A stretch of 64,000 nt of DNA from Escherichia coli (GCF_048403405.1 NZ_CP183129.1); one strand, 5' to 3'. Shown: positions 12,401 to 12,815, counted from the stretch's first letter. The notes: generated by a model from the sequence alone, not told the origin. Numbers and translations: made by a program.

Positions 12401-12815
12401 TACAGCCTCCTTCCCACGGTTTAAGAGCAAACATGCCACATAATTATTTACAACATCCAGAAGCAGTAAATGAATGATACTGACAATGACGCCAGTCCAT
12501 TATCTTTGCATAATGTTTGTTAGCTATAGATTTTAAAAATATTTATGAGAAAAGTATGGCACCAGAGGGGGTTTTGACTATCAAAAATCGCTCAAACCTG
12601 AACTAAGATGATGAATTAAGCATTATCAGCGATAATTGCCACTCAGCTCTACAAATAATATTTAAATGCTCCTGAACAGTGATGTAGCAAGACACGTATG
12701 GTGCCAACGAAGAATAAAAATTTATAGAGTTCTTATTCAATATAACCGGAATAGTCAGAGACTGAAGTAAATGACCTGAAAGAATGAGAGAGGCAGCACC
12801 GCCCCTCTCCATCAG

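Follow-up and report, generated by a model that had tools for sequence, protein, structure and literature searches.

Does the RNA hairpin that follows the last gene of the yihX-yihY-dtd-fabY operon of Escherichia coli end the operon transcript, does it mark the border between the core genome and a variable island, or does it have another role? This question is raised by the 3' end of fabY (yiiD) in a 64,000-nt stretch of an E. coli genome (GCF_048403405.1, NZ_CP183129.1), which we refer to as the window and whose positions are counted from its first letter. An initial annotation made from the sequence alone had proposed that a GC-rich inverted repeat directly behind the yiiD stop terminates the transcript and forms the boundary between the core operon and an island, so that an effector-like gene further downstream would need its own promoter in AT-rich DNA that is silenced by H-NS.

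According to the ORF list and the annotation, fabY is located on the minus strand (ORF 12816..13805, TAG stop at 12818-12816), where it closes the cluster of co-oriented, overlapping genes yihX-yihY-dtd-fabY. The inverted repeat of the initial annotation, gagaggcagcaccgcccctctc, is found at 12788-12809. In the fabY-sense RNA it folds into the hairpin GAGAGGGGCG-GUGC-UGCCUCUCUC, which runs from 12809 to 12786, starts 6 nt past the fabY stop and contains two G.U pairs among its 10 bp. When the 81-nt context is folded, this hairpin is also at the core of the MFE structure. Because two of the pairs are G.U, the fold is stronger on the fabY-sense strand (-15.6 kcal/mol) than on the plus strand (-11.5 kcal/mol). 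We observed equally stable hairpins in 24-nt windows at 18 strand-specific loci in the 64 kb, while six dinucleotide shuffles contained 3.2 on average, and by our own arithmetic from these counts, the probability of such a hairpin at 10-30 nt from a given stop and on the right strand is P < 1e-3. Furthermore, the GC content drops from 0.61 (12800-12999) to 0.36 (12600-12799), and this drop coincides with the hairpin. The hairpin right after the yiiD stop and the accompanying change in composition were thus confirmed in position and in strand, behind the last gene of the cluster. The features of the locus are listed in Table 1.

Table 1. Coordinates of the features at the 3' end of fabY and in the adjacent variable segment of the window.
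Feature	Position	Strand	Remarks
fabY (yiiD) TAG stop	12816..12818	-	ORF list, annotation; exact end of homology among E. coli and Enterobacteriaceae
6-nt linker CUGAUG between stop and stem	12810..12815	-	AGGGGG in the divergent lineage, not conserved (alignment)
RNA hairpin GAGAGGGGCG-GUGC-UGCCUCUCUC	12786..12809	-	10 bp, 4-nt loop, -15.6 kcal/mol
Tail AUUCUUUCAG, partial U-tract of the window allele only	12776..12785	-	most variable stretch
Block UUCAGGUCAUUUAC just 3' of the hairpin	12767..12780	-	13/14 positions kept in the divergent lineage
Region behind the hairpin with C > G on the sense strand	12701..12798	-	C/G 1.8, 1.36 and 1.45 in successive 78-nt windows; weak rut-like composition
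Window equivalent of K-12 4078563(+), centre of the Rho termination region	~12687	-	coordinates mapped from PMC7815308
AT-rich untranslated spacer from hairpin to downstream gene, 35% GC	12401..12785	-	common to K-12 and O157
Candidate sigma-70 promoter, TTTACT-16-nt-AATAAT	12443..12470	-	9/12 consensus matches; prediction; block partly conserved in L085
SopB-like ORF, 604 codons, intact	10586..12400	-	ATG at 12400; Shine-Dalgarno AAGGAGG at 12412-12406
Variable cassette: hairpin, spacer, ORF and 66 nt beyond the ORF	10520-12815	-	replaced segment in non-carriers

The hairpin sequence occurs only once in the window when up to 3 mismatches are allowed. Among complete E. coli genomes it was found at 3,108 places in 3,082 genomes with a median of 1 per genome, so it does not belong to the REP/BIME type of repeats. 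A scan of 9400-14000 against Rfam at E <= 1 yielded no match to the hairpin, and the sole match was a spurious lncRNA. We also considered a repeat family or a terminal repeat and rejected this idea, as the window holds no second copy and the other end of the cassette lacks a partner. A 69-codon ORF that starts at the ATG of the linker (12812) was likewise rejected as a gene, as it is frameshifted by a 4-nt deletion in K-12 and O157 and its ATG is absent in L085, a contig of a divergent lineage. Apart from this, the 3' arm of the hairpin and the tail (CTCTCATTCTTTCA on the minus strand; 12777-12790 on the plus strand) have a perfect 14-nt inverted match to a site in the downstream ORF 1 kb away (11713-11726 on the plus strand). 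With a roughly estimated expectation of ~0.1, this match is probably due to chance.

Canonical intrinsic terminators combine a stable, GC-rich stem-loop on the transcribed strand with a conserved U-tract directly 3' of the stem. The first component is present behind fabY (10 bp, 4-nt loop, -15.6 kcal/mol), and its location behind the last operon gene is that of an efficient Rho-independent terminator at which the operon transcript could end. In the window allele, the tail AUUCUUUCAG behind the stem contains 5 U among its first 8 positions, and this allele is listed by a lenient scan that asks for at least 5 T in 8. However, the same scan detects 3 terminator-like sites in the window compared to 5.2 in shuffled sequence, and the listing of the fabY site therefore carries little weight. 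To rank the sites, we used a d'Aubenton-Carafa-type score that is maximised over hairpin choices and that serves as a relative ranking only. On this scale the window allele scores -15, the K-12 allele -33 and the other alleles -24 to -44, whereas the canonical terminators in the window score +5 to +52. The terminator claim of the initial annotation is weakened by this prediction. A low score does not exclude a 3' end, and this counts in favour of the intrinsic reading: the gene-end hairpin of fdhE (9470-9493 on the plus strand, -18.9 kcal/mol) has no U-tract and scores -6, but a strong 'primary' Term-seq 3' end is located there in K-12 (4080258, minus strand). The fdhE case is a local example of a hairpin without a U-tract that defines an mRNA end.

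To assess the second component, we aligned five E. coli alleles (the window, K-12, O157:H7, APEC O78 and SMN013SH2). In the stem-loop, 1/24 positions is variable, and this C->U change retains a G.U pair. By comparison, 6/10 positions vary in the tail, i.e. the next 10 nt, and 8/44 in the following 44 nt. The tail originates from an (AUUC)2 repeat and reads AUUCUUUC in the window, AUUCAGGU in K-12 and O157, and ACUCAUUC, AUUCAUUC and AUCCAUUC in others. The tail of K-12 and O157 has lost one AUUC unit (4 nt), which abolishes the U-run and adds an outer CUGA/UCAG stem, resulting in -22.2 kcal/mol. This allele is the commonest, being present in 2,065 of the 3,082 carriers. The U-tract is thus the least conserved part of the structure and is missing in two thirds of the carriers.

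Metagenomic contigs L085 and L086 represent another Escherichia lineage with the same arrangement, in which fabY is 93.5% identical. Compared to the window, the nucleotide identity in this lineage is 78% for the downstream ORF and 56% for the spacer. The hairpin region is kept at 20/24 positions (3 substitutions and a 1-nt deletion), whereas 4 positions are changed in the 6-nt linker. The UUCAGGUNAUUUAC block behind the hairpin is also kept in this lineage, and the block UUCAGGUCAUUUAC (Table 1) may be part of a Rho-loading or processing region. A stem-loop that is preserved amid divergent flanks and next to a variable tail indicates that the stem is under constraint and the U-tract is not. 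No compensatory double substitutions were detected among the stem alleles, and the stem varies too little for an analysis of covariation.

The distance to the stop codon is a further argument against efficient intrinsic termination. The translating ribosome almost fully represses a terminator that is located a few bp past a gene (Li et al., PMC4824070), and the fabY stem, 6 nt past the stop, falls inside this zone. In the literature that we searched, no paper was found that ties yiiD to a terminator, and yiiD, fabY and the coordinates are absent from the supplements of TERMITe and SMRT-Cappable-seq. From the sequence of its tail (5 U in 8), the window allele could terminate more efficiently than the K-12 allele. 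Nevertheless, with the K-12 data described in the following, we regard it as unlikely that an efficient Rho-independent terminator ends the operon transcript at the hairpin, and as possible for the window allele.

K-12 (NC_000913.3) carries an identical hairpin at 4078445-4078468, where fabY ends at 4078438. In Term-seq data from three conditions (Adams et al. 2021, PMC7815308), no 3' end is listed at 4078400-4078999 in K-12, where the operon is weakly expressed at ~125 reads per 800 nt. The missing end at the hairpin may be a threshold effect of this weak expression. The same study lists a bicyclomycin-sensitive Rho termination region at 4078563(+), with a Rho score of 6.27 and p = 2.8e-27 (Adams et al. 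2021, PMC7815308, Supplementary file 2), which is 125 nt past the K-12 fabY stop and ~95 nt past the hairpin. The reads upstream and downstream of this position number 125 and 84 without bicyclomycin, and 123 and 518 with it (PMC7815308). As the downstream signal in the presence of bicyclomycin is higher than the upstream signal (518 compared to 123), part of it must stem from RNAs that are initiated in the spacer or at yiiE and are normally stopped by Rho, and not from read-through of fabY, and read-through past the hairpin itself is putative in K-12. Behind the hairpin, the sense strand contains more C than G over a stretch of ~100 nt (Table 1), beyond which C/G is below 1; this bias is modest, and the first of the windows includes the C-rich 3' arm of the hairpin. 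Of the initial claim that the hairpin terminates the transcript, the stable sense-strand hairpin at the operon end thus stands, but the U-tract is not conserved, the score is -15, no Term-seq end is listed for K-12 and Rho termination takes place downstream.

Dar & Sorek (2018, PMC6061677) describe a class of Rho-dependent transcripts with 3' ends at stable stem-loops, behind which there is no U-rich tail and rut sites follow directly. The fabY hairpin is a stem-loop without U-rich sequence behind it. Bicyclomycin-sensitive read-through is found downstream of it for the K-12 allele, to which transcripts initiated in the spacer may contribute. Our preferred explanation, which we estimate to have about an even chance of being correct, is that the hairpin is a protective 3'-end stem-loop of the yihX-yihY-dtd-fabY mRNA that precedes a Rho-dependent terminator, and not an efficient Rho-independent one. 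RNA polymerase would read through the hairpin, with little intrinsic release, as the ribosome that terminates at the UAG would cover the 5' arm and a proper U-tract is missing. Rho would then load on the untranslated, AT-rich RNA with C > G just downstream and would terminate transcription within ~100-150 nt, the bicyclomycin sensitivity having been shown for the identical hairpin and spacer of K-12. By analogy to the class of Dar & Sorek (2018), 3'-5' exonucleases would trim the transcript back to the hairpin, such that the fabY mRNA would be protected. In the window allele, a single A->U change creates the tail AUUCUUUC and may add a minor intrinsic component. The net effect would be that the SopB-like gene downstream is insulated from the transcription of the operon and has to rely on a promoter within the 35%-GC and probably H-NS-bound spacer. 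The protective hairpin predicts a stable 3' end at the hairpin, and the fact that K-12 Term-seq calls none is a point against it.

To locate the border of the variable segment, we compared 12300-13100 to about 5,426 complete E. coli genomes with megablast. We found that 3,060 genomes match the query throughout, whereas the remainder match only from query base 517, which corresponds to position 12816 in the window. Among E. coli genomes, the homology therefore breaks at the stop codon itself, and the hairpin is located 6 nt inside the variable side. With a 100-nt probe, the hairpin was detected in 3,082 genomes (57% of E. coli); in ~2,340 genomes, another sequence with another inverted repeat follows directly past the fabY stop. 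From the break at 12816 it follows that the hairpin is the first element of a variable cassette and not the last element of the core. The initial annotation had correctly recognised a compositional break at the hairpin, but as the boundary between core and island it was misplaced, since the hairpin travels with the cassette. We conclude that the fabY hairpin is an ordinary gene-end feature and that its roles as terminator and as border had been over-read.

The alternative cassette, which is present in ~43% of E. coli (e.g. in strain 103605), contains a convergent alpha/beta hydrolase gene, a hypothetical gene and nadS. Between the convergent hydrolase gene and fabY, this allele has a perfect 14-bp inverted repeat, CTGAAAAGGTTTTC-AGATT-GAAAACCTTTTCAG (L003, 3940-3990), i.e. 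a different hairpin at the same position. The FabY C-terminus GGNEEE* is conserved across 79 further Enterobacteriaceae species, in which the sequences part directly past the stop; the hairpin of the window was found in none of 80 Enterobacteriaceae fabY loci. The 3' flanks of fabY in 80 Enterobacteriaceae species (L005-L084) are unrelated between genera and even within Escherichia. As judged from these comparisons of sequences, the 3' end of fabY is a general replacement hotspot across Enterobacteriaceae. Strong, non-homologous hairpins recur 3' of the fabY stop, being in the top decile in 40% of the 79 species (KS p = 2e-7), where many species are closely related and independence is thus overstated. 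A similar G-rich or GTTTTACTT-like start past the TAG is shared by E. whittamii, another Escherichia species and the alternative E. coli allele, and with this shared start both cassette types appear to be old.

The location of the hairpin at the very edge of a replaceable cassette, together with the inverted repeat with which the alternative cassette likewise begins, could also mean that it has no function at the level of the transcript. It would then be a relic of the end of an incoming cassette, or a site of recombination or insertion at the DNA level, that is kept by its linkage to fabY. In the lab strain ER2683, an IS10 (ISVsa5-family) is inserted in the loop of the hairpin, past GGUGCU (L089, about 2514-2550), which would fit an insertion site but is probably a laboratory Tn10-derived event; the lack of detected covariation also fits a relic. 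However, the hairpin is conserved between a divergent linker (4/6 positions differ) and a divergent tail (6-7/10 vary), and since both flanks diverge, linkage to fabY does not explain its conservation. Moreover, the strand asymmetry due to the G.U pairs points to a role in RNA, no matching repeat was found at the other end of the cassette and no second copy in the window, the hairpin is essentially single-copy, and there are neither an integrase nor att-like features. We consider such a relic or DNA-level site to be quite improbable.

Least probable, and in our estimate very improbable, is a barrier on the plus strand that could coexist with the protective hairpin in a bidirectional insulation, by stopping or pausing spurious antisense transcripts from the AT-rich spacer before they reach fabY: the plus strand folds at -11.5 kcal/mol, a promoter-like site at 12486-12514 (+) is directed at fabY and AT-rich DNA of the H-NS type contains spurious promoters. 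However, the fold is the weaker one, has two C.A mismatches and is followed by CAUCAGCUAC without a U-run. Neither a Rho region nor a Term-seq end on the minus strand (K-12 numbering) is listed near 40784xx-40789xx (PMC7815308).

If the operon transcript is ended by Rho behind a protective hairpin, the transcription of the downstream gene would depend on the spacer. With a GC content of 35%, compared to 39% in the ORF and 50.5% in the window, the 385-nt spacer ranks among the 1% of such windows that are poorest in GC in this sequence, and the AT-rich segment that had been proposed behind yiiD was thus found. The H-NS high-affinity motif shows no enrichment. In K-12, the neighbouring yiiE is flagged as H-NS-bound in two ChIP data sets (compiled in PMC5797941), and it is SlyA-induced and reported to be counter-silenced by SlyA. 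Silencing of the downstream gene by H-NS is plausible, with H-NS binding being reported for the neighbouring yiiE of K-12 only. Furthermore, a SELEX peak of sigma-S RNA polymerase is located in the yiiD-yiiE spacer of K-12; with the predicted sigma-70 promoter (Table 1), it is plausible that the downstream gene has its own promoter.

Lastly, we analysed the gene behind the spacer, which is the effector-like gene of the initial annotation. Its strong Shine-Dalgarno sequence AAGGAGG is located 5 nt before the ATG. The 604-aa protein has no sequence match in Pfam, NCBIfam or PDB, and ten of its homologues have no Pfam match either; its family comprises 52 matches among 1.84 billion representative proteins. 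The most conserved feature of this family is the CX5R loop GCKSAKDRT, in which C499, D504 and R505 are invariant and G498, K500, S501 and A502 are near-invariant at a mean identity of 21%. The AF2 model of the protein has a pLDDT of 86 and a pTM of 0.87. Its top match in PDB is Salmonella SopB (8jzl_A, E = 5e-7), followed by Legionella SidP and SidF. The protein thus combines the CX5R loop with a modelled SopB-like fold, as expected for the SopB/IpgD type, whereas membership in a curated sequence family was not found. Based on the model, the ORF would encode a SopB-like CX5R phosphoinositide phosphatase, of which no published description was found in the literature searched.

The full-length ORF region is present in 1,061 genomes, i.e. 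~20% of complete E. coli. In ~1,984 genomes, including K-12 and APEC O78, the ORF is reduced to a 65-bp remnant, and in O157:H7 it is split. A clean deletion of 2,048 bp (window 10288-12335; L002, L088, L090) leaves the first 65 bp of the ORF, and the hairpin, the spacer and the promoter-like region are kept. In a strain that is 100% identical in this region (L001, 3287-5101), PGAP annotates 10586-11500 as a 304-aa 'transposase' and 11513-12400 as a 'pseudogene missing C-terminus'. An uninterrupted ORF is thus still given two names by PGAP, transposase for its C-terminal half and pseudogene for its N-terminal half. The name 'transposase' is probably an annotation error that was propagated from truly split genes such as that of O157:H7.

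The states of the tail and of the gene lead to a further and more speculative idea. The hairpin might stand, as a conserved element, at the head of an ancient cassette that is exchangeable at the fabY stop, and act as a tunable insulator that co-evolves with the state of the SopB-like gene; the (AUUC)n tail behind the stem would set the leak of operon transcription toward this gene. If this were true, the UUCUUUC tail would go with an intact gene and the tail-less, longer stem with its loss, as in K-12, where the gene is deleted, and in O157, where it is split. We consider this idea improbable.

Beyond the cassette, we made some additional observations on the neighbourhood of yiiE. The yiiE paralogue yiiF is missing from the window, where ~600 bp of K-12 are absent at 9521-9545. 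Two direct repeats of 45 nt (9546-9590 and 9985-10029), which are 80% identical and 439 bp apart, flank the yiiE unit. This suggests that a repeat-mediated deletion or duplication has shaped the yiiE/yiiF pair. Between yiiE and the SopB-like ORF, a locally GC-richer patch is present on the plus strand (10145-10358). It contains an ORF of 56 codons (10145-10315), which may represent a small gene or what is left of one, and then a terminator-like hairpin with a run of seven T (10341-10358; TCATCGGCGCGACGATGA GTTTTTTT).

For the annotation of similar loci, our results mean that the tail and its conservation should be checked before a neat GC-rich hairpin past a stop is called an intrinsic terminator. 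They place the border of the island at the fabY stop codon and predict that the neighbouring gene is insulated by Rho, and probably by H-NS, rather than by the hairpin alone. The value of the hairpin is hence mostly one of annotation, and its surroundings matter more. In ~20% of complete E. coli genomes, the flank of fabY carries the region of a full-length, unannotated SopB-like CX5R phosphatase gene, and knowing how this gene is isolated from the neighbouring transcription is the first step to asking when it is expressed.

When comparing the locus to known systems, we find similarities and differences to each of them. REP/BIME-type palindromes can stabilise upstream mRNA, and the fabY hairpin resembles them in being a GC-rich extragenic palindrome at a gene end; unlike REP/BIME, it is essentially single-copy, has no similarity to the REP-like hairpins of the window and has no Rfam match. 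It shares with canonical intrinsic terminators the GC-rich stem on the sense strand, the location at the operon end and, in the window allele, 5 U in the first 8 tail positions. It differs from them in that the tail is its most polymorphic part with no conserved U-tract, the score is far lower and the stem lies 6 nt past the stop. In contrast to the class of Dar & Sorek, no steady-state 3' end is listed at the fabY hairpin in the K-12 Term-seq tables, and the rut-like excess of C over G in the untranslated RNA directly behind it is weak; as in that class, a stem-loop is located just past the stop without a conserved U-rich tract, followed in K-12 by a bicyclomycin-sensitive region ~95 nt further on. 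Finally, AT-rich islands that are silenced by H-NS and Rho differ from the cassette, in which the H-NS motif is not enriched, mobility genes are absent and an old age is indicated by its presence in another Escherichia lineage. Like such islands, the segment has a GC content of 35-40%, varies between strains and is located beside a core operon of 55% GC, with Rho termination inside the segment and with a neighbouring gene, yiiE, that is reported in K-12 to be bound by H-NS and counter-silenced by SlyA.
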